Shown: in pieces, positions 1,533 through 60,763 of the stretch
Numbering within the stretch: the first letter of the stretch is position 1
Layout of the letters: every line of letters begins with the position of its first letter
Assembly (NCBI GenBank): GCA_016861265.1
Contig: BOLA01000001.1
Location: forward strand, 934,150 to 998,149
Reading direction: 5' to 3'
DNA: 64,000 bases
Origin: Patescibacteria group bacterium
Lineage (GTDB): Bacteria > Patescibacteriota > Dojkabacteria > J137
The notes under the pieces: model-generated
Database searches by the model: none
Told to the model about the DNA's origin: nothing
What the model saw: the letters and a program-made list of their open reading frames with translations, nothing else
Translations under genes and position numbers: made by a program

Positions 1533-1619
1533 ATTTTGATTTTAACACTTGCTAGTTGTAATAGAAATCTTAACCTACAGATATGTGATTAATATTTTGC
1601 TGGAGAAGGAATTAGCTTT

Positions 1620-1647
1620 GAGCGGCGAAGTTAAAACTTCGCCGCTC
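1620..1647 (-). terminator. 11-bp stem hairpin (GAGCGGCGAAG/loop/CTTCGCCGCTC) just downstream of the 1676..2539 gene
   Basis: Perfect inverted repeat seen in sequence; no strong U-tract. Confidence 0.4.
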
Positions 1648-1675
1648 GGCACATTTGCACTAACTATCAGATCGG

Positions 1676-2539
1676 TTATTCACAACCTACAACGGTTAAA
1701 GAGGCATCTCCCGCGTTAATAGATGCATTCGTGACAAAACTTGTGACCGCCGAAGTTGTCATGTATTCAGTCCACCCTGCTTCTATACCGCGTGCAACCA
1801 TTGCAACACTTATCTCCTCAAACCACTTTCCAACTTTTGAATCAACCTGAAGTTGTGTAGAAGTTGAGAAGCTTTGTAATGAGGAAGTAAGCAAAAGTGT
1901 GCCTGCCGTATTAAAGATCGGGAGAATGTAAACATTCCCGAATGTATATATTCCCGGCAGAGTGACCGAATTAATGCGTGGACGGTTCAAGACTGTGCAA
2001 TTGGTATCGACTGCATTTGAAAATGCCTCACCGGTCATTTCACCGTTAAAGGCTTCTACGTCACTTACGCAGTCGAATACCACCATCATCTGCGGTGCAT
2101 TTACTGTATCCACAGAGAACACAAAATCGGTGTCTGCTTCAACAGTATTGACCGAAGATACTGTAAAGGTCTTTGCCACAAAATCAGCTTTGCCCCGATA
2201 CAGTGTAAAACCATAGGTTTCCGAATGTAATGTTACCTGCCCTGTTGCACCACTCAGCGAGAATGCAAGCCACTTACTCAAATATAGGTAGTAGCGAGCA
2301 GAAACTCCTTGACGAGTGGTTGTGAAGAAATTCACCTCGCAACGATTTGGGGTGGGAGTAACATCTCCTTGTGCCTGCAACACGAGCTGTTGCGAAGCAG
2401 CTACTTCTGTTGGCTGAACCTGTTGTGTAAGCGCCGAATCCAGCGTTGGCGATGGTTCGTCCTGTGCACCTACAATAACAAAGGACAACATGAGTGGCAG
2501 AATCGCCAAAAGCACCGATAGCACTACAGCTCTCTTCAT
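1676..2539 (-). CDS. secreted hypothetical protein on a GC-rich islet (~48% GC)
   Basis: 287 aa; N-terminal signal peptide ending …VIVGAQD; composition clearly above the ~30% GC background; overlapping antisense ORFs are typical of GC-rich coding DNA. Confidence 0.6.
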   Translation of the reverse strand: MKRAVVLSVLLAILPLMLSFVIVGAQDEPSPTLDSALTQQVQPTEVAASQQLVLQAQGDVTPTPNRCEVNFFTTTRQGVSARYYLYLSKWLAFSLSGATGQVTLHSETYGFTLYRGKADFVAKTFTVSSVNTVEADTDFVFSVDTVNAPQMMVVFDCVSDVEAFNGEMTGEAFSNAVDTNCTVLNRPRINSVTLPGIYTFGNVYILPIFNTAGTLLLTSSLQSFSTSTQLQVDSKVGKWFEEISVAMVARGIEAGWTEYMTTSAVTSFVTNASINAGDASLTVVGCE

Positions 2540-2576
2540 TTATATAGCTCCGTGATTTCACTGACTCTCGATAGTT

Positions 2577-2619
2577 GTAGTCAGCTGAATAACTTAATAA
2601 AAATCATTCAGCTGACTAC
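2577..2619. promoter_or_regulatory. perfect 14-bp inverted repeat GTAGTCAGCTGAAT-N15-ATTCAGCTGACTAC upstream of the islet gene (candidate operator)
   Basis: Seen directly; located 38-80 nt upstream of the minus-strand start at 2539. Confidence 0.45.
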
Positions 2620-2727
2620 ACGTGTTAATGTGCGTTATCAATTATTAGTAACAATAACTGGTTCTGGGATTATATCGCGATTGAATGATAAAGCATAGTT
2701 TAGGTGAGGATTTACCTCACCTAAAGT

Positions 2728-4784: not shown

Positions 4785-5858
4785 TTACTTAGTCGGTTTC
4801 TCATCCTCCTGTAATGGGTGAAAGTCATGGTGCGATTTTTCAGCAAACTTATCTGAGGCATGAACATACCTAGAAGTTGTTTGTAAGGAAGAGTGACCTA
4901 ATAATCTTTGAATTGCTACGGGACTTGCGCCTTCTTCGGCAATATATGTGGCAAAGCCATGCCTAAGGCTGTGGGCAGATGTTGGAACAATTATTCCAAG
5001 CCTAGTTCTGTATTCTTTAATCTTCATTTGAATGTAATTTTGAGAAAGTCTTATTAGATAGGGATTATTGGTCGCTTTTCGTGTACCCTTGGTTGGAACG
5101 AACATTGCAGGAAACTCATCAGTTCTATCTTTCAAGTATTCTTCTAAGAATTCCTTAGCTCTATGGGTAAGGTATACGAACCTTTGTTTCTTACCTTTAC
5201 CTAGTATATAAATTCTATCGTCTACTACTCTCCCATCTTGAAATTTAATCTGTTCCCGATTCAAATTTACTACCTCAGAAATTCTCATACCTGTGGAAAA
5301 TATCAATTCCAGTATTGCCCTATTTCTTATTTTTACAATTGGATCTTCTTCAAAGTGAGTTGGGCATTCAATTAAATCTACAAGCTCATTAAATTCAGCA
5401 ACCTGCTTTTCTTTCTTCTCAGCCTTAATTAATTTTATTGCAGACGGAGCAATTGGTGATGGTTTATCGAAATCCACCAAAAAAGTTAAATAAGATCTTA
5501 ATGCTGAAAGCATTCTGTTTACACTATTATCTGATAACTGACCCTTGTACATAGCCTTTTTTACCTCCGAAATATTATTTTGTGACTCTTCAATATCGGC
5601 CTGTGTTAACTCCATATTCTCTTTGTATTTATGAAGAATGGGAATATAATTTTGTTCTCGTAGAAATCCTTTATATTCGCTAATTGTCAGCTTATCAATT
5701 TTGCTAAATGGAGTTTCAATGTAGTATAAAAATGCTGAGAAAATTTCTAGGTCTCGACCGTAGTTATCTAATGTTTCCTTTGAATAGTTATTATTCTTAA
5801 GATTAAGTAAATATTCTCTTAGAAAGTCTAATTTGTAAGGGTTAGAAATATCGGTCAT
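4785..5858 (-). CDS. tyrosine site-specific recombinase (XerC/XerD-like integrase family)
   Basis: 357 aa; C-terminal HSLRHGFATYIAEEG…LLGHSSLQTTSRYVH contains the R…HxxR…Y catalytic signature. Confidence 0.8.
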   Translation of the reverse strand: MTDISNPYKLDFLREYLLNLKNNNYSKETLDNYGRDLEIFSAFLYYIETPFSKIDKLTISEYKGFLREQNYIPILHKYKENMELTQADIEESQNNISEVKKAMYKGQLSDNSVNRMLSALRSYLTFLVDFDKPSPIAPSAIKLIKAEKKEKQVAEFNELVDLIECPTHFEEDPIVKIRNRAILELIFSTGMRISEVVNLNREQIKFQDGRVVDDRIYILGKGKKQRFVYLTHRAKEFLEEYLKDRTDEFPAMFVPTKGTRKATNNPYLIRLSQNYIQMKIKEYRTRLGIIVPTSAHSLRHGFATYIAEEGASPVAIQRLLGHSSLQTTSRYVHASDKFAEKSHHDFHPLQEDEKPTK

Positions 5859-5937: not shown

Positions 5938-7485
5938 ATGAAATTACCTACAGCAATAAAAATACCCAAATTTGTAAAATTACTTATTTTAGGTCTGATA
6001 ATAGTTGGCTTTTTAAGTAGATTACTAGGAGCTTTTATAGATCCTGATATGTGGTGGCATATTAAACTAGGCGGAGATATTATAAATGGGCAGTGGGTTA
6101 ATACCTTAACATTTACTTGTACTGACTATATATGGATAAACCATTCATGGTTATCCGATGTTCTAATCTATCAGATTAATACTCTGCTGGGTTTTCAAGG
6201 GTTAGCAATTTTCTTCGCATTAATTTTTTCTGGAGGAATTCTATTCAGCTTACTTTCTTTGAAACTTGTTTTAAAGCAGTACAAAATTAAGAATTCCGTA
6301 CTGAGTACTTTACTATACATAGCCTTCTTTACTTTACTCTTAAGTTCATTTATAGCAATAAGACCGCAGGTCTTTACCTTCCTGTTCTTTAATGCCTTAA
6401 TATTTTTCTTACTTAAATTTTACTATGCAAAATCAGTAAGGTTTATTTCTTTAATTCCATTCTCGTTGTTTTTTATATTGTGGGTAAACTTGCATGGAGG
6501 ATTTGTTATAGGCATTGTATTGACTGGTATATTCATTACTGCAATATTTTTTGAATTCCTTTTTAAACTATTTAACAGGCAGCAGGAAGAAGCCAAGCTA
6601 CTCCTAAGTAAAATTAAGTATTTATTTGTATTTATAATCATTTTTCTTATATCAAGTCTTATTAATCCATTCGGATTAGATTTATGGAAGGAAATATTTA
6701 CACTTGTATTGGGCAGCAATAATGCCAACTTTATTACAGAATGGAAGTCCATAAACATTAAAGATTCTTATGGTTTATTCTATTTTATGTTATTTGTAGG
6801 AACGCTACTTCTGCAGATTGTAAATAAAAGTAGCAACCTATTAAGATTACTGATGGTTGTAGGTCTTGGATTGCTCTCACTTTATTCAATTCGTTATATC
6901 CTTCCTGTAAGCGGAATAGTCCTTCTAGTCCTGTTTATAGAAGCCAATATTCTATTCGAATGGCTTTTAAATAAAATCTTAACAAAGGATAAAGATATTT
7001 TAAGACTTTTAGCTATTCTTAAATATGTATTGGTAATTACAATTGCATTGGTTTCGGCCATGAGCGGTTATATAGGAATCGCATTCTTTACCACTTTGAA
7101 TAATACTAACGAGGCTGCGGATTTGCTCTACCCGACAAAAGCCAAGGATTTTCTAGAAGAAAATAAAGATGAATATTCAAATCTAAGATTCTACAACACT
7201 TATGTGTGGGGCGGATATCTTGAATATACCCTCCCGGATTACAAATGGATAATAGATGGAAGAATGCCTGAATGGCACTGCAAGGGTATGGTTAGAAGCA
7301 GTATTATGCTGGATTACATCGAGGTAGAAGATCTAGGCTCAAACTGGAATTTGGTCTTAGAGAAACAGAATATTAGTGGCTTGATTATAAAAACAAATAG
7401 TATTTTGTATAATGTTATTAATACAAGCAGCAACTGGAATAAAGTATACACCGATGAAACTGCAACAATATTTATTAGAAATTAA
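5938..7485 (+). CDS. polytopic membrane protein, possible GT-C-type glycosyltransferase
   Basis: 515 aa, >10 TM helices; acidic DPD in first predicted external loop; family assignment is an inference. Confidence 0.4.
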   Translation: MKLPTAIKIPKFVKLLILGLIIVGFLSRLLGAFIDPDMWWHIKLGGDIINGQWVNTLTFTCTDYIWINHSWLSDVLIYQINTLLGFQGLAIFFALIFSGGILFSLLSLKLVLKQYKIKNSVLSTLLYIAFFTLLLSSFIAIRPQVFTFLFFNALIFFLLKFYYAKSVRFISLIPFSLFFILWVNLHGGFVIGIVLTGIFITAIFFEFLFKLFNRQQEEAKLLLSKIKYLFVFIIIFLISSLINPFGLDLWKEIFTLVLGSNNANFITEWKSINIKDSYGLFYFMLFVGTLLLQIVNKSSNLLRLLMVVGLGLLSLYSIRYILPVSGIVLLVLFIEANILFEWLLNKILTKDKDILRLLAILKYVLVITIALVSAMSGYIGIAFFTTLNNTNEAADLLYPTKAKDFLEENKDEYSNLRFYNTYVWGGYLEYTLPDYKWIIDGRMPEWHCKGMVRSSIMLDYIEVEDLGSNWNLVLEKQNISGLIIKTNSILYNVINTSSNWNKVYTDETATIFIRN

Positions 7486-9741: not shown

Positions 9742-10356
9742 ATGATAAATATAATCTCAAAACTTAATATTTTTGTTGGTGTACTGTTGATAACAATAAC
9801 TCCGACATACTTCTATGTTTCGGCTCAACTGCAGCCTACTATTATTACGTCTAATTCATTGCCAGTAACTCAAACAGAAAGGGAAAGCAATATTCTAGAC
9901 GGTAATTTAGGTATTAGGGGTAATCTTGGCGGTGCTAATACGCTTAAGGCTATTAAGGTAACTGGAGATGGGCATGTAAAAATTGAATCGATCGGTATCG
10001 ATGCCAAAATTTACGAGGGTGCAGATTCCTCGGCTCTTGAGAAAGGGATTTGGAGAATGCCTGAGCATGGTACTCCAGACAATCAAGTTAGTGATCAACC
10101 TGTGGTATTGGCAGGACATAGATGGGGGCAAAATGACTTTACTTATGAGTACAGATCTAAGAACCTATTCTTAAATCTTCCTAGTTTAAGTAGAGGTGAT
10201 GTAATTGAAGTTACTTGGAATGGAGTTACTTATAAGTATGCAGTTACAGATGTTCAAAAGAACAATTATGTAGAAAAGTTGTCCGACTTGATCCTTATTA
10301 CTTGTGTTGATTACGTGTCAACAACTAGATACTTTGTATACGCTGAAAGAATCTAA
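9742..10356 (+). CDS. sortase-family transpeptidase
   Basis: 204 aa; N-terminal TM anchor; catalytic His in VVLAGHRWG, Cys in LILITCVDY (TLXTC), Arg near the C-terminus. Confidence 0.75.
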   Translation: MINIISKLNIFVGVLLITITPTYFYVSAQLQPTIITSNSLPVTQTERESNILDGNLGIRGNLGGANTLKAIKVTGDGHVKIESIGIDAKIYEGADSSALEKGIWRMPEHGTPDNQVSDQPVVLAGHRWGQNDFTYEYRSKNLFLNLPSLSRGDVIEVTWNGVTYKYAVTDVQKNNYVEKLSDLILITCVDYVSTTRYFVYAERI

Positions 10357-10421: not shown

Positions 10422-10712
10422 ATGAAGAAATTGCTAAGTGTTTTAACACTAACAGTTATAGCATTTTCAAGTGTTAGTCCTTTAGTATTAAAGGCTGATG
10501 CTGGTGCACAATCTTGTGTTCCTGGAACTGGAGTTAACGGAGTGGCTTGTACACCTTGTTACCCTGGACCTTATAACATTTGTGCACCTCATACCGGAAT
10601 CATTTTCAATGATTCAAATATTAACGAAGGAGCTGTATTTTTAAGTGCAGCAGCAGTAGTTGCTGGAGCAGCATTCGTTATTAACGGTAAGAATTTGAAG
10701 AAGAATGCTTAA
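10422..10712 (+). CDS. small Cys-rich secreted protein with C-terminal hydrophobic segment and basic tail (candidate sortase substrate lacking LPXTG)
   Basis: 96 aa; signal peptide; 6 Cys; C-terminal …NINEGAVFLSAAAVVAGAAFVINGKNLKKNA resembles a sorting-signal architecture. Confidence 0.55.
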   Translation: MKKLLSVLTLTVIAFSSVSPLVLKADAGAQSCVPGTGVNGVACTPCYPGPYNICAPHTGIIFNDSNINEGAVFLSAAAVVAGAAFVINGKNLKKNA

Positions 10713-10785
10713 TTGATTTAGTCCCCTGTTTCCCTGAATTGTTACTATAAATAAAAACATTCAGGGATCAGGAATTTTGAAGAGG

Positions 10786-10822
10786 TTTTTTGACACTGGA
10801 AAATGTTGACAATATAACGAAA
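10786..10822 (+). promoter_or_regulatory. sigma70-like promoter (TTGACA-17nt-TATAAC)
   Basis: Seen in sequence; lies in the AT-rich stretch between the Cys-rich protein gene and the GC-rich islet. Confidence 0.35.
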
Positions 10823-11125
10823 GAGGTATATACTGGATATATATTAATATTGATTGAGTGGGCTAACCCATTAATGAGTATTAATATACTCGATCTTTGA
10901 CAACTGTATTTTACAGTTGTAGAAAATTCTTAATTAATTGTATGGCGCAAGTCTGCAATCTTTAGGAAGATTCTCTCAACTATTGCTTTAATAGTCCAAG
11001 TACTCGCTATGGGTAAATAGTTAATAAGGTTAGCTGTTTACCCGTAGTGGAGTACATCCTTAAGGGTACTCGACGCGGTAGGGCATTTGCCCGACAAATC
11101 TAGTTCGACTCTATGGAGGACAGTC

Positions 11126-12220
11126 ATGTTCAACAACAATCGTACGGCTCGTATCGTGATGCTGCTGGTTCTCGTAATCGGCAGTGTCTTCACCAGTGTG
11201 ATGAGCGTCTTCGCGCAGGATGTTGCTCCGGTTTACCCGGTCAACGACCCCGCGAAGTGCGACTTCACGTTCGCGTACAACGGCAGCGGCGGCTGGAATG
11301 TCCAGCGCTACCTTCAGGACAACGGCGATGGCATCGTTCTCGTTACGACGCAAGAAGGTTGGGGGGAAGTGACTTCGGACACTCCCTTCACCGTCTTCGT
11401 CGGCACGTGGGAAGACGCTTCGCAGTCTGTCGTGAATCAGGGCGCAGGCGTTCTCGCAGTGGCTGAAGAGAACCGTTTCGCGTATCGCTTCGGCGAGGAT
11501 GCCAAGCTGGCAGTCGGTCAGGCGCTCGTTATGGTGGCAAACTGCACGCAAGGCGTGGCAGTCGATGCCCCGGCAGCGTTCCCGCCCAACGACGCGGTTT
11601 GCGATCCCACGTTCTGGCGCGAAGGTTCGGACAATCTCGGACGCAAGTTCGTTGACGGCTCTCGCTTGCTGCATTTCGCGGCGGGCGAAGTTGACGACGC
11701 GGCTGTTGGTTCGAACGTCCCGTTCCTCGTATTTCGCGGCATGATCGATGGCACGGGCAACCTCGGCTCTCCGGTTCTGGAATACAGCTACTCCCCCGAC
11801 GGCACGACCTTCAAGTACGTGATCTCGGCGGCGAATAAGCTGGCGCAGAACGAAGGACTGATGGTCGTCTGGCCCTGCCTCAGCGGCGCTGAACACGACG
11901 GGTTTATGACCCACATCACCACCGTCCCGAATGTGGACTGGTGCGGCGCTCACGTAATGGCGGCGGGTTCGACTGAAACCGTCCCTGCCAACTGCGTGGT
12001 CTCCGGCGATGTCAAGGTCAACGGCACGGCGCTGTACGACAACGTGGAAGACACGGGGTTGGTGGTTGCCATTGGTAGCAACCCGGTTGAAATCTACGCT
12101 GAGTGGGGCGCGAGCATTTGGCCCGCGGGCACTGTCCCGCAGACCGCCCACGATGCGTTGGTTCTGACCGGCTGCGCCGATGCGCTCGGTTGCCGCGTTG
12201 TTACGGTGAGTAACCAGTAG
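11126..12220 (+). CDS. secreted hypothetical protein on a ~60% GC islet
   Basis: Start ATG 11126 preceded by GGAGGACAGTC; signal peptide …SVFAQD; composition ~2x the background GC; full-length antisense ORF (11111..12241) is a GC artefact. Confidence 0.6.
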   Translation: MFNNNRTARIVMLLVLVIGSVFTSVMSVFAQDVAPVYPVNDPAKCDFTFAYNGSGGWNVQRYLQDNGDGIVLVTTQEGWGEVTSDTPFTVFVGTWEDASQSVVNQGAGVLAVAEENRFAYRFGEDAKLAVGQALVMVANCTQGVAVDAPAAFPPNDAVCDPTFWREGSDNLGRKFVDGSRLLHFAAGEVDDAAVGSNVPFLVFRGMIDGTGNLGSPVLEYSYSPDGTTFKYVISAANKLAQNEGLMVVWPCLSGAEHDGFMTHITTVPNVDWCGAHVMAAGSTETVPANCVVSGDVKVNGTALYDNVEDTGLVVAIGSNPVEIYAEWGASIWPAGTVPQTAHDALVLTGCADALGCRVVTVSNQ

Positions 12221-12264
12221 CAGCGATCCGAACCTGACCAAAGCAATAGGCGAGAAAAGAGTAA

Positions 12265-12289
12265 TCCGGACACCCTTGTGGTGTCCGGA
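12265..12289 (+). terminator. hairpin TCCGGACAC-loop-GTGTCCGGA downstream of the islet gene
   Basis: Seen in sequence. Confidence 0.4.
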
Positions 12290-12350
12290 CTCGCTTTAAG
12301 TAGATTTCTAAAAGTCTTTTTAAAGTGAGTTAAATTATTTAAAAAACACT

Positions 12351-12829: not shown

Positions 12830-12876
12830 AACTTTAGGGCGGAAGCATCTTCTGCTTCCGCCCTAAAAACGCTAGA

Positions 12877-17011: not shown

Positions 17012-17017
17012 CCCAAA

Positions 17018-17048
17018 ATAGGGGATGGCAAATTTTTCCATCCCCTAT
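17018..17048 (+). terminator. hairpin ATAGGGGATGG-loop-CCATCCCCTAT
   Basis: Seen in sequence. Confidence 0.55.
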
Positions 17049-17152
17049 TGCATTTCTATTGAGAATTAAATAAAAAAAATGTATAATTCAACGCTAGAAA
17101 TCGTTAAGTGCATTAAGGGAAAGGTAGATTAACGATGATGGTAGAAAGTGTC

Positions 17153-21725: not shown

Positions 21726-21953
21726 ATGGAAGAAACAAAAACTGTAAAAAGAAAGGATCTTCACAGCCTTAAATCGAGTATTGCAGCAGCATTTGGTTAC
21801 ATTCAACTTGCGCAAAAACAAGCAGATAAGTTAGACCAGGATGAAGCTCAAAAGGTTCAAGAAATGCTTACAAAAGCAATGCAAGTCTTAGAGAGTCTGG
21901 ATGATCAAGTAAGAAAATTGGAAGGAATAAACGAGCCGCTAATGGATATTTAA
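21726..21953 (+). CDS. small helical protein, hypothetical (possible Spo0E-like regulator)
   Basis: 75 aa; sits between the HK and RR genes; weak resemblance to Spo0E-family motif (…LESLDDQV…). Confidence 0.3.
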   Translation: MEETKTVKRKDLHSLKSSIAAAFGYIQLAQKQADKLDQDEAQKVQEMLTKAMQVLESLDDQVRKLEGINEPLMDI

Positions 21954-22639
21954 TCTTCTCCGTAGTCCATTAATCTATAGCCGTATCCTCTAATAGATCT
22001 TATGCAGTCGCCTTTTTCATCATGGAGCTTTTTTCGAAGCTTTCCAATGTGAACATCTACAACTCGGGTATCGACATCGGAAGAATAACCCCACACCGAG
22101 AACAGTATTTTGTCTCTTGTGCATACTCTAAATTTATTAATCATCAAGTAGTGCAGTAGTTCAAATTCTTTAGATGTAAGTTCGACCTTTTTTCCGCCTT
22201 TTCTTACTTCCATAGTCTCTGAATTTATTACCACATCCCTGCTTCTTAATTCCGAGGAGGTAGACTTACCTAAAAGGTTTCTAATTTTTGAATGAATTCT
22301 TGCAATGAGTTCCTCAGAGTTGAAAGGCTTGGTAATGTAGTCATCGGCGCCCGCCTTAAGGCTTGCGATAAGTGATTCCGAAGATTTATCTCCTGTAAGT
22401 ATTATTATCGGAACGTCAGCAAAAGATTTTCTAATGCTTTCTGTAATAGTTTTTCCATGGAGATCTTCAAGCATTAAGTCTACCAATACTAGATTTGGTT
22501 TATTGGCAATAATATATTTTAATCCTTCGATACCAGATGTAAATGTATGCGTATCAGCCTCTAGAGAATTAGTAATTAAGTCCTTAAGAAAATTAAGTAA
22601 TTCAACATTGTCTTCAATTATTACTATTTTGGGTATCAT
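21950..22639 (-). CDS. OmpR/PhoB-family response regulator (REC + winged-helix)
   Basis: Start at MIPKIVIIEDN; D in LVDLML; C-terminal winged helix …VDVHIGKLRKKL. Confidence 0.85.
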   Translation of the reverse strand: MIPKIVIIEDNVELLNFLKDLITNSLEADTHTFTSGIEGLKYIIANKPNLVLVDLMLEDLHGKTITESIRKSFADVPIIILTGDKSSESLIASLKAGADDYITKPFNSEELIARIHSKIRNLLGKSTSSELRSRDVVINSETMEVRKGGKKVELTSKEFELLHYLMINKFRVCTRDKILFSVWGYSSDVDTRVVDVHIGKLRKKLHDEKGDCIRSIRGYGYRLMDYGED

Positions 22640-22982
22640 ATAAATATGTAGTAACTTTTGTCTTAAAAATATCAATATCAAAAGGTTTTTTTAAATAGTC
22701 TGTAACCTTAAGCTTTTCTTTTACCTCAGACAAGTTTGTAATAGCTGACATAAGAATAATGGGTAAATTGGGAAGAGTAGACTGAATTTCTTGAATTACA
22801 TCATCTGCTTTTACTTTCTTAAGCCAATAGTCAATTACTAATAAATCCACATTGTTATTCTTTACAATATTTCTAAGACTAATATCGTCTGAGCATTTTA
22901 TAATACGCACATCTAACTCACTCAATATTAATTCAATTAATTGCAATAGATTTTTATCGTCTTCACACACTACAACCGTCAT
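22614..22982 (-). CDS. single-domain (CheY-like) response regulator
   Basis: 122 aa REC domain: DD in VVCEDD, phospho-acceptor D in LLVIDYWL, conserved K in LKKPF. Confidence 0.75.
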   Translation of the reverse strand: MTVVVCEDDKNLLQLIELILSELDVRIIKCSDDISLRNIVKNNNVDLLVIDYWLKKVKADDVIQEIQSTLPNLPIILMSAITNLSEVKEKLKVTDYLKKPFDIDIFKTKVTTYLYDTQNSNN

Positions 22983-23113
22983 AAATGTAGTCTCATATTA
23001 TTTTAAATGTAAGAACAATATATTATTTTTGTAATAATTATATAGTACAAATGTAAATATATTGTAAATTTAGACAAAAGAAGTTGGGGTCTTATAAGCA
23101 GACCCCCATAATT

Positions 23114-23758
23114 TTATTTCAAATCTACCCCACCAAATACTGCACTTCCTGATATTTCAATAACGTTCTCTGAATCGGTGTTTGTTCTTCTATTATCGCT
23201 TAACCCACCCATCATTCCAAATATATTATTAATCAGTTTTACATTGTCTGGAAGTAATATTTCAAGTCCCGCAAATATCAAATCAACTTCAATTTTTACA
23301 TTACCTTTAATTTCCGCATCTCTTAAATCAAGTTTAACTCCTCCAAAAGTCGCGTGAATTTTCGCACCGGTGAACTCTCCTTTTACATTTTTTTCGTCAC
23401 CCCAGAACAATACATTTGAAGTAATGAATCCATGTTCCGTTGAAGAACTTAGTCTATCTCTTTTGCCTAGTAGAACACTTATACCTGCAAAGATTATAAA
23501 CAATGGCCATAAATTCCAGACAGAGAATGGTAATACATTTAGTGCGTCTAGCTGTAAAAAAATTCCTACAGTCAGCATAAACAATCCCGGAATTATGTTA
23601 ATTGGATTTTTAATTACTAGGTAGATTCCTAAAAACACAACAATTAATGGCCAGATTTTTGCTAGACCATAGCCAATCCCAAACTGATTTAAGAGTAGCA
23701 CAAATCCCATAAGTACTATTAAGCCTCCCCAAAAGAATCTTGAACCTGAATTATTCAT
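23114..23758 (-). CDS. LiaF-like membrane protein (N-terminal TM domain + C-terminal toastrack/DUF4097-like)
   Basis: 214 aa; TM helices then a repetitive beta-rich C-terminus (GGVKLDLRDAEIKGNVKIEVD…). Confidence 0.5.
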   Translation of the reverse strand: MNNSGSRFFWGGLIVLMGFVLLLNQFGIGYGLAKIWPLIVVFLGIYLVIKNPINIIPGLFMLTVGIFLQLDALNVLPFSVWNLWPLFIIFAGISVLLGKRDRLSSSTEHGFITSNVLFWGDEKNVKGEFTGAKIHATFGGVKLDLRDAEIKGNVKIEVDLIFAGLEILLPDNVKLINNIFGMMGGLSDNRRTNTDSENVIEISGSAVFGGVDLK

Positions 23759-32885: not shown

Positions 32886-33009
32886 TTATTTAAAATCTGA
32901 AAATTTTGATACAGTTTTAAATATACCCTATTTTTATTAAATTTGTGAAAGTTTTTTGACACTGAATGAGTGGCCTTGGTCATTTCCCAAGGCCACTCAT
33001 TGTTAACGG

Positions 33010-49543: not shown

Positions 49544-49623
49544 ATAGTAGTATTGGTGGTATTATGCGGGTTATGTTTACATAACCCGCATAATCAACTA
49601 CAGATTAAGACTAGATTGTTTAG

Positions 49624-55730: not shown

Positions 55731-56141
55731 ATGAGTCTGCTGACAGTTAATTACAGCGGTTCTGCTATGGCTCAAGCGCTTCCCAAGCCAGTGGGTCATG
55801 GCAATCCTCGGATAATGCTTTCCGAGTTTGGTAGTGAGGTGGAAACCGAGCTGATCAAGGCGCTGGGAAATCAGACCATTCTTCCTGTGGGCATTATAGG
55901 TACTAGTGGCGCACAGCCGTTTGGTGTAAATGCCCGCAATCGTGGAAGTGTTGAATTGCTTTTGGAACTGATTTCCCCTGTGGAGCTAGATTCCGAGGGT
56001 GTTCATGAACTTGCCGTTATCATGAGGCGTGCTGTATTGGACCTATTCAATACGCCACGTTATCAGGGCGGCAGTTATGAGCAGCTCGAGGTTCTGTCTA
56101 TGGTGGTTGTTCACAGGGGTGTATTAGTTTCTAAAGGCTGA
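55731..56141 (+). CDS. hypothetical protein on a GC-rich islet (~50% GC)
   Basis: 136 aa; extended -10 TGTTATAAT and SD AAGGAGG upstream; hairpin GCGGGAACTGC-AAGC-AGTTCCCGC at 56157..56182. Confidence 0.45.
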   Translation: MSLLTVNYSGSAMAQALPKPVGHGNPRIMLSEFGSEVETELIKALGNQTILPVGIIGTSGAQPFGVNARNRGSVELLLELISPVELDSEGVHELAVIMRRAVLDLFNTPRYQGGSYEQLEVLSMVVVHRGVLVSKG

Positions 56142-58495: not shown

Positions 58496-58927
58496 ATGCC
58501 AGTAGTAAGTGGTTTGTGGGATCAAGGACGAGTGTTCGCAGCACTCACTTGTAATCCCGAAGAGCAGCATACACAAGCCGAGGCACTAATGCTTGAGTTG
58601 TTTGAGGCAGCGCAAGCTGTTCTAGTCAAGCAACTTGAGGTTGTGCCGACGGGTATTGTGTTCTTCTGCGAGAAGCAGCCGATGCTCACCATAAATTCGT
58701 TCCCGCTGGAATTCGCCATTCGCAGCACTAAAAGCAAGGAATGGGGAAACAGGGATGATCAGCAAGAGATTATCCGAAAAGTCCTCAAGCGAATGCGGAA
58801 GGTGCTTAGGGCGTGGACTGAAGCCAAAAGGGCTAACTTTAGCGGTTGGCAGATTGGCATGGAGCTCAGCTTTATCGAGCTGTTCGCTACCAGCGAGGCG
58901 GTGGAAGAAGAAGCTGCTACGGAATAA
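58496..58927 (+). CDS. hypothetical protein on a GC-rich islet (~52% GC)
   Basis: 143 aa; upstream TGTGATATAAT extended -10 and SD AAGGAGG. Confidence 0.45.
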   Translation: MPVVSGLWDQGRVFAALTCNPEEQHTQAEALMLELFEAAQAVLVKQLEVVPTGIVFFCEKQPMLTINSFPLEFAIRSTKSKEWGNRDDQQEIIRKVLKRMRKVLRAWTEAKRANFSGWQIGMELSFIELFATSEAVEEEAATE

Positions 58928-60493: not shown

Positions 60494-60763
60494 CTATTGA
60501 CCGGTCAGGCGGGTGAAAAGATCCCCGTATTCCGCAGGGTTGGGTTCGTTGGTGGACTTTTCGGTGGACGAAGTTGCAGGGCGATCAGTGAGTTCGCCAC
60601 TTGCCCTAGCATCCTCACGTGCCTGATGCCACGCTTCCGAAACTTCCTTCCCGGATGAGTTTGTCCCCTTCATTGCATCGACTTTGTCGTACTTATTACC
60701 GGGGACATATCCTGCATCACGCAGTACCTTTTCGTCCGAATCTTTACCTTTCGGGTCTGCCAT
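60494..60763 (-). CDS. small hydrophilic hypothetical protein on a GC-rich islet (~52% GC)
   Basis: 89 aa; SD GGAGGTG on the minus strand; composition contrasts with flanks. Confidence 0.45.
   Translation of the reverse strand: MADPKGKDSDEKVLRDAGYVPGNKYDKVDAMKGTNSSGKEVSEAWHQAREDARASGELTDRPATSSTEKSTNEPNPAEYGDLFTRLTGQ

Follow-up and report, generated by a model that had tools for sequence, protein, structure and literature searches.

We analysed a 64-kb window (the whole stretch of DNA shown above, from contig BOLA01000001.1) and focused on a gene on its minus strand at 1676..2539, which encodes an orphan secreted protein of 287 amino acids (aa), together with the inverted repeat that precedes it. 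This repeat lies as GTAGTCAGCTGAAT-N15-ATTCAGCTGACTAC exactly at 2577..2619, where the original prediction had placed a perfect 14-bp palindrome, and is perfect even over 15 bp (2576-2590/2606-2620). The prediction had read it as the operator of a dimeric regulator in a self-contained expression unit of foreign origin. A self-contained unit of deviant composition is indeed present, with its own conserved -10 box, a long leader, a Shine-Dalgarno (SD) sequence and a 3' hairpin. Within the leader of ~125 nucleotides (nt), the -10 box is followed by a small hairpin (P1), a linker, the repeat itself (hairpin P2), a tail, a short sequence named motif 3, the SD sequence and the ATG, in this order and on the minus strand. 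Five lineages were compared throughout, i.e., that of the window, L002, L006, L032, and L033.

The 5' limit of the unit is set by the terminator hairpin of an upstream htrA-like gene (2699..2725, minus strand). A hairpin is kept at this place in every lineage, with a different stem sequence in each, and because the htrA-like gene has such a terminator-like hairpin of its own, the target gene forms a separate unit. The candidate -10 box TATAAT (2669..2674) lacks a good -35 element, and a two-hexamer scan yielded no full sigma-70 match at its position. TATAAT is found in all five lineages; ATATAAT is invariant in alignments A1 and A5, with L033 out of register in alignment A7. P1, CAGUUAUUG-UUAC-UAAUAAUUG at 2639..2660, starts 8 nt after the box and, judged by this position, would probably lie at the very 5' end of the mRNA. 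A small hairpin folds 6-9 nt after TATAAT in every lineage, again with differing stem sequences, and RNAalifold pairs columns 28-36 with 41-49 at P1. The conserved single-stranded linker AACGCACAUUAA (2625..2636) is invariant in four lineages. P2 spans 2576..2620, with a 5' arm at 2620..2601, a loop at 2600..2596 and a 3' arm at 2595..2576, and is separated by the single-stranded tail ACUAUCGAG (2567..2575, identical in four of the five lineages) from motif 3 (2558..2566, sense AGUCAGUGA), a copy of 5'-arm sequence that complements the 3' arm and co-varies with it. The SD sequence GGAG (2548..2551) lies 8 nt before the ATG and is kept in the window lineage, L009, L002, and L006; it reads AGAG in L001, and purine-rich AGGA and GGGAG take its place in L032 and L033, respectively. 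Downstream of the coding sequence (CDS), all on the same strand, the 3' untranslated region (UTR) carries the box AAUGUGC at 1649..1655, which is complementary to the leader linker and for which AATGTGCC is invariant in alignment A2. It is followed by a hairpin at 1620..1647. The downstream hairpin had been anticipated, with a stem of 11 bp; the stem is in fact a perfect, GC-rich one of 13 bp (1620-1632/1635-1647), closed by a loop of 2 nt and not followed by a U tail. Each of the five lineages has a GC-rich stem-loop after the stop codon, whose stem sequence differs in L032 and L033, and the hairpin of the window is the terminator or 3' stabiliser of the gene.

Folded as sense RNA, P2 comprises 20 bp, of which 15 are perfect outer pairs and five are inner pairs including G·U, closed by a loop of 4-5 nt. 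The 15-nt spacer of the original prediction is thus mostly paired within P2. At the DNA level, the repeat extends to arms of 20 nt (2576-2595/2601-2620) with 90% complementarity and 5 nt between them. The minimum free energy of the whole leader is -38.1 kcal/mol (z = -5.5). Perfect hairpins of 13-16 bp are not rare by themselves, as about eight occur in the window; P2 stands out because it lies between a conserved -10 box and a start codon and is conserved in five lineages. The repeat is present in each of the five lineages that bear the gene, and its stem measures 18-20 bp in every one of them.

Conservation was assessed on an alignment that runs from the htrA terminator to the start codon. 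Identity to the window is 67-94% for linker, P2 arms, and tail (the latter outside L033), compared with 52-65% for CDS nucleotides and 0-40% for the 5-nt centre that forms the P2 loop. Tail and motif 3 together are identical at 17 of 18 positions in L002, L006, and L032, lineages whose coding sequences are 56-65% identical in nucleotides. Within each arm is the 8-bp palindrome TCAGCTGA, and the two centres are 27 bp apart. These cores are invariant in four lineages; in L033 they have changed to TTAGCTAA and TTAGCTGA, and the stem remains intact with U·G pairs.

Across the five lineages, 96.6% of 118 alignment cells in P2 are paired on the sense strand, and slid registers reach only 20-49%. Five pairs are changed on both sides, with double changes from A:U to U:A in L032, from G:C to C:G and from G:C to A:U in L033, and from A:U to C:G in L006. 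The five inner pairs (columns 84-88 with 94-98) remain paired despite substitutions, and one of them, 85:97, the fifth of the pairs changed on both sides, occurs as four pair types. None of 500 shuffles reached the covariation score of P2. All 13 cells that depart from Watson-Crick pairing are G·U on the mRNA strand and none is A·C, therefore the antisense strand would pair in just 85.6% of cells; G84·U98 is invariant. Both compensatory or wobble changes and a restriction of G·U to the sense strand, as expected of an RNA element, are accordingly found in the five lineages compared.

The location of the repeat points in the same direction. It lies ~45-90 nt downstream of the sole conserved promoter element (TATAAT, 49 nt upstream of the repeat), is centred ~65 nt downstream of this box and leaves 24 nt to the SD sequence. 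L032 carries a 13-nt insertion between linker and P2, hence there is no fixed spacing between promoter and repeat. The conserved TATAAT at 2669-2674 and the SD sequence at 2548-2551 suggest that P2 is part of the transcript, between transcription start and start codon. Because the spacer is paired and co-varies, because G·U pairs are confined to the sense strand and because half-site changes are compensated, we prefer an RNA hairpin to a protein-DNA site. P2 quite likely functions as RNA, and on balance we favour the view that the palindrome represents the paired arms of a long RNA hairpin in a conserved ~125-nt mRNA leader, acting post-transcriptionally and not as a DNA operator.

Three other readings of the leader were tried and rejected. 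An open frame for a leader peptide within the hairpin of the window (ATG ATT TTT ... TGA) is not conserved in L002 and L006. Promoters overlapping the repeat (TTGATA-N17-TAGTCA and -10-like words in the loop) are not conserved either, and the insertion in L032 breaks their spacing. A leaderless start from TATATAA beside the ATG is likewise not conserved, and an SD sequence is present.

Motif 3 adds a third partner to the helix. Its core AGUCAG (window 2561-2566) lies 12 nt downstream of P2, with a constant spacing across lineages. Stem positions 4 and 5 change in L032 and L033, and motif 3 changes to match (UGUCAG and ACUCAGC). In the helix that the 3' arm forms with motif 3 (columns 104-110 with 123-129 of alignment A7), 100% of cells are paired and two pairs are changed on both sides (16 of 500 shuffles were as good); the two arm positions that co-vary with motif 3 also co-vary within P2. 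When the 5' arm is removed, this helix becomes the minimum-energy fold in all five lineages. P2 has much the greater stability and is the first to be transcribed, so that only its cutting or unwinding would permit the alternative helix. A sequestration of the SD sequence by motif 3 is not claimed: the weak helix of 5 bp that RNAalifold suggests for it, including one compensatory pair, fails in L032 and L033.

The leader is also complementary to the other end of the transcript. GCACAUU of the linker (2633..2627) matches the AAUGUGC box just 5' of the terminator hairpin, and the predicted duplex in the window (-12.6 kcal/mol) is reached by 3 of 1000 shuffles. Against shuffled 3' UTRs, the corresponding frequency is 3-5 per 1000 in the window lineage, L002, L006, and L032. 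The duplex extends over 7+3 bp in the window, over 9 bp in L002 and L006, and over 7+10 bp in L032, where an insertion of its own contributes. A conserved and significant complementarity between leader and 3' UTR is thus present in four lineages and weak in L033.

A specific scheme of stability and processing can be drawn from these elements, which we put forward tentatively and which could well be wrong in its particulars. Transcription would start from the TATAAT box and yield an mRNA protected at its 5' end by P1 and P2. P2 may act as a determinant of stability or processing: its length agrees with the ~20 bp of near-continuous double-stranded RNA of an RNase III substrate, and as two-turn double-stranded RNA it is a candidate processing site for an enzyme of this type. 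A motif scan of the 64-kb window found no RNase III signature motif. After cleavage or opening of P2, the 3' arm would refold with motif 3 into a new small hairpin just upstream of the SD sequence. The linker would pair with the 3' UTR box by the terminator hairpin, so tying together and protecting both mRNA ends. The net effect might be a control of lifetime, processing, and translation of the mRNA of a single gene, the direction of which is likewise conjectural.

Several observations weigh against an RNA element of this kind. Only five independent lineages are available, the covariation counts are small, and the shuffles ignore relatedness. The pairing of 5' and 3' ends is weak in L033 (87 of 1000 shuffles), and the longest exact complementary match between leader and 3' UTR in the window, a 7-mer, is not significant (133 of 300). 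The SD sequence is not convincingly sequestered in either conformation of the leader. The -10 box lacks a -35 element, and transcripts may read through from htrA. The outer 12 bp of P2 are nearly invariant, which a sequence-specific protein needs and an RNA stem does not. Each arm is an 8-bp palindrome in itself, suited to a dimeric DNA binder and extended in the proximal arm of L006 to a perfect 16-bp palindrome, GTAGTCAGCTGACTAC; since a hairpin has no need of self-palindromic arms, they weigh toward such a binder. The spacing of 27 bp between the arm centres is fixed in all lineages, and motif 3 is equally readable as a third half-site.

These last features are those of the DNA operator of the original prediction, which would consist of two TCAGCTGA palindromes 27 bp apart and a third half-site AGTCAG, occupied by a dimeric or tetrameric factor that blocks elongation or initiation. 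TCAGCTGA is over-represented in the window (five occurrences compared with 0.87 expected, two of the five being the P2 arms), and a regulator of co-evolving specificity could explain why all three AGTCAG-type motifs have changed in concert in L032 and L033. We nevertheless consider an operator unlikely. Like operators of the LacI, TetR, and Arc/MetJ types, the repeat is perfectly inverted, has palindromic cores within its arms and precedes a single gene; unlike them, it lies downstream of the -10 box, with no room for a promoter between site and SD sequence, its spacer is complementary and co-varying, and its departures from symmetry are all G·T on the sense strand (13 vs 0). Its core sequence has changed in L033, the most distant lineage, and complementarity has been kept. 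Moreover, 27 bp correspond to ~2.6 helical turns, therefore the two sites would be on opposite faces of the DNA. No regulator gene is found among the neighbours of the target gene, and half-site conservation up to the most distant lineage, overlap with the conserved promoter element, a cognate regulator nearby or a regulon in the DNA scanned, and an unconstrained spacer, as looked for in an operator, were all absent at the repeat.

The original prediction had further proposed a search for other copies of the palindrome to define a regulon. In the 64-kb window, no other good match to the 14-mer arm exists, the best one having two mismatches and lying inside a coding open reading frame (ORF). 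A covariance model of linker, P2, and motif 3 retrieved nothing but the orthologous locus from 141 kb of related DNA. Among 185,579 species genomes, the paired-core pattern gave 22 matches; the sole related one is the orthologous Saccharibacteria locus, and the 21 matches in unrelated phyla are taken as chance. The single viral match proved unrelated, and both scans of JGI metagenomes were empty. The palindrome is single-copy across the window, the related loci and the related genome, and no regulon was found there. A unique and non-conserved palindrome next to a gene of ordinary composition had been named as the outcome that would speak against the prediction; the palindrome is conserved and the composition is deviant.

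It is very unlikely that P2 is of the terminator type, i.e., an attenuator stopping most transcripts ahead of the gene, or the terminator of a ~95-nt small RNA composed of P1, linker, and P2, the linker of which pairs with the 3' UTR. P2 is built in the style of the terminator-like hairpins of this genome, which are long perfect stems without U tails, and the complementarity of the linker to the 3' UTR box resembles that of a seed region. P2 has no U tract after its stem and was not called by the terminator scan, and the host's apparent terminators likewise lack U tails. An attenuator would need an upstream anti-terminator partner for the 5' arm, and none was found; the sole alternative helix forms downstream of P2 and could not prevent termination. 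Since tail and motif 3 are invariant and their distance to the SD sequence is fixed, the RNA appears to continue and to function beyond P2, and it would not be parsimonious to place a constitutive stop ahead of a gene kept by purifying selection.

Long hairpins of 15-16 bp with at most one mismatch recur in the window, for example at 12833-12867, 17017-17049, 32965-33001, and 49561-49594, and several of them sit just after ORF ends. No U tract was seen in the flanks read for the hairpins at 2699-2725, 1620-1647, and 12833-12867. From such terminator-like hairpins without a U tract we propose that the intrinsic terminators of the host may be of a tail-less type.

The foreign origin attributed to the unit was examined via composition and synteny. 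The target gene had been described as ~48% GC, far above its flanks; the anomaly is real, with a measured value of 45.7% and a GC content at third codon positions (GC3) of 0.410. Overall GC of the window is 34.3%, and its 54 other ORFs have a mean GC of 33.2% (standard deviation 2.9) and a mean GC3 of 0.261 (standard deviation 0.033), from which the target deviates with z = 4.3 and z = 4.5, respectively. The window ORFs that were scanned include no genes for ribosomal proteins, which would serve to gauge translational selection as a cause of the high GC3. Its leader, at 34% GC, is host-like. The excess is common to all orthologs, with 43.5-45.5% in four lineages and 52.9% in L032, whereas the folD and htrA genes of the lineages that bear orthologs are at 30-38%; it is hence an old excess that has been maintained rather than lately imported. 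The neighbourhood comprises htrA, a Bax-inhibitor family gene, xerC/D, folD, and pth. In all five lineages for which flanking DNA exists, folD and pth come directly downstream of the target, and the htrA-like gene (Trypsin_2 and PDZ domains) is found upstream wherever the contig reaches, that of L032 stopping short of this position. Among ~15 billion proteins, no homolog was found outside the host clade. Of the signs of a recent acquisition, atypical composition is present, and patchy presence, bordering mobility genes or repeats, and relatives in a donor lineage were not seen in the five lineages, the ~15 billion proteins, and the viral contigs. As the gene occupies the same syntenic place in five lineages with neighbours that are only 62-92% identical, and as its homologs are confined to the clade and its leader is host-like in GC, we conclude that it is an old resident, vertically inherited in the Saccharibacteria (TM7) clade, and not a recent import.

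A mobile cassette or its relic, with a GC-rich CDS inserted between inverted ends (GCACATTAA ... TTAATGTGC) and the palindrome as recombination hairpin, is extremely improbable: the CDS alone is GC-rich beside a host-like leader, inverted boxes of 7-9 nt flank it, a second GC-rich gene of the window also has inverted flank boxes of 10 nt, and a tyrosine recombinase gene lies two genes away, but all five lineages share the locus, no target-site duplication is evident at the boxes, no homolog occurs in the viral collection or in another genomic context, the recombinase is a conserved syntenic gene of XerC/D type (86-99% identical), and relic ends would decay whereas these boxes are conserved and extended in a lineage-specific manner.

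Two features of other lineages adjoin this locus. In L002 (~6900-7330, also in L004), the target terminator and folD are separated by a GC-rich insert of ~400 bp in which no gene was called; the window lineage lacks this insert, which matches nothing in Rfam even at E <= 1 and may represent a non-coding RNA not yet described or the remnant of a gene. L033 carries, at 4837-5745 between htrA and the target, an extra gene (GC 44%) for a secreted, Cys-containing protein of 302 aa, with a TATAAT box of its own and a 7-bp hairpin behind that box; its product has no detectable homology to the target protein beyond the signal peptide.

The target protein itself starts with a predicted Sec signal peptide (residues 1-25, 2465..2539 on the minus strand), with cleavage after VGA and before QDE as read from the sequence. 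A mature N-terminus after AQD like that of the gene at 11126 had been noted before, and both proteins do have a hydrophobic N-terminus followed by AQD (...VIVGA|QDEPS and ...SVFA|QDVAP); A25 and Q26 are invariant in the target family. Four Cys residues are invariant as well, two disulfides are likely, and the fold is probably beta-rich or all-beta. Searches against Pfam, NCBIfam, and PDB-sequence profiles gave no match. Relatives amount to six sequence clusters among ~15 billion proteins: a first homology search of 5.8 billion clusters identified four, and a profile search of 1.84 billion representatives added two more distant ones. A broader second profile search of the protein database yielded no new family members, and homologs are absent from the viral protein collection and viral contigs. 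The protein diverges faster than the products of the neighbouring genes. Identity to the window lineage is 67% in L002 (neighbours 72-92%), 43% in L032 (neighbours 70-74%), and 34% in L033 (neighbours 62-86%).

The gene at 11126-12220 (plus strand) is still richer in GC (60.8%; GC3 0.745, z = 14.5) and encodes a second secreted orphan, whose relatives are confined to a handful of metagenome contigs and which shows no detectable similarity to the target protein (E = 0.3). It is syntenic and is placed after a sortase gene and a gene for a 96-aa Cys-rich protein. In L038, its upstream ~400 nt are almost identical, and the proteins are only 57% identical (region 10713-12330). A 10-nt box in its leader (10980-10989) is complementary to the 3' UTR (12240-12249) and kept in L038; the region has no Rfam match. 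The 96-aa protein (10422-10712), encoded next to the sortase gene at 9742-10356, has a signal peptide and a C-terminal hydrophobic tail and is unusually strongly conserved, being 99% identical in L038 compared with 79% for the sortase.

Both GC-rich genes could belong to a common class, although we regard this as speculative and quite unlikely. Saccharibacteria would carry a few fast-evolving, persistently GC-enriched genes for secreted proteins, at least two of them in the window (1676-2539 and 11126-12220), framed by ultra-conserved, mutually pairing 5' and 3' UTRs. Such a frame could seal the mRNA into a loop resistant to nucleases, P2 and its co-varying third motif would be a processing-dependent switch, and the conserved flanks could serve as recombination anchors for allele replacement, with biased gene conversion explaining the stable GC excess of the coding part.

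Elsewhere in the window, three more GC-rich patches (55731-56141, 58496-58927, and 60494-60763) contain one ORF each, without Pfam family and without signal peptide. The first two ORFs have 49% and 51% GC, respectively, with GC3 up to 0.56, and the third lies within a segment of ~48% GC. In the region 21950-23758, a response-regulator receiver ORF (22614-22982) overlaps an ORF of 243 aa (21950-22681) and adjoins a gene for a LiaF-like membrane protein (23114-23758). The overlap may represent a split or frameshifted two-component regulator, and no link between this region and the palindrome was found.

In Rfam 15, no family matches the P2 leader, the only hits being sub-threshold ones of the bare hairpin to microRNA precursors (at most 23.5 bits, compared with thresholds of 53-99); the locus has no entry in Rfam, and its leader is probably an undescribed structured one. 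To our knowledge, regulatory mechanisms have hardly been described for Saccharibacteria and other ultra-small episymbiotic bacteria. The gene behind the leader encodes a secreted protein that diverges rapidly and is specific to its lineage; genes of this kind are expected to act where bacterium and host cell meet. Its analysis corrects a tempting mis-annotation, in which a perfect palindrome and a GC-rich gene suggest an operator on a foreign islet, and raises the question why, in a genome of 34% GC, a few genes have stayed at 44-61% through long spans of evolution.

Among known systems, the 5' UTR stabiliser of E. coli ompA contains two hairpins, with hp1 at the 5' end. It shares with the window leader a length of ~130 nt, the 5'-end hairpin followed by a second one, the association with a gene for an exported protein, and the presumed role in protection from 5'-end-dependent decay. 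The two differ in phylum and RNases and are not homologous, no known Hfq or small-RNA sites occur in the window leader, and P2 is far longer and more perfect than hp2 of ompA. RNase III processes helices in the leaders of phage T7 (R1.1), of lambda N and of E. coli adhE and rnc. Like P2, these are 5'-UTR duplexes of RNA that run for ~20 bp almost without interruption, and the downstream fragment may refold after cleavage, in the window leader by pairing of 3' arm and motif 3. The window leader has no Rfam match to rncO or similar elements, and a motif scan of the 64-kb window showed no rnc gene. A precedent for the predicted pairing of both mRNA ends is the hbs mRNA of B. subtilis, in which a 14-bp interaction of 5' and 3' UTR modulates cleavage by RNase Y (Braun, Durand and Condon 2017, PMC5737220). 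The window gene shows the corresponding complementarity of linker and 3' UTR at the level of sequence, and its organism has a gene for an RNase J-type enzyme as well, ~9 kb from the target. Cleavage by RNase Y/J has been shown for hbs, and there is no sequence or Rfam relationship between it and the window leader. The product of hbs is a nucleoid protein and that of the window gene a secreted orphan protein, and hbs has neither a 20-bp perfect helix nor a three-way co-varying motif.

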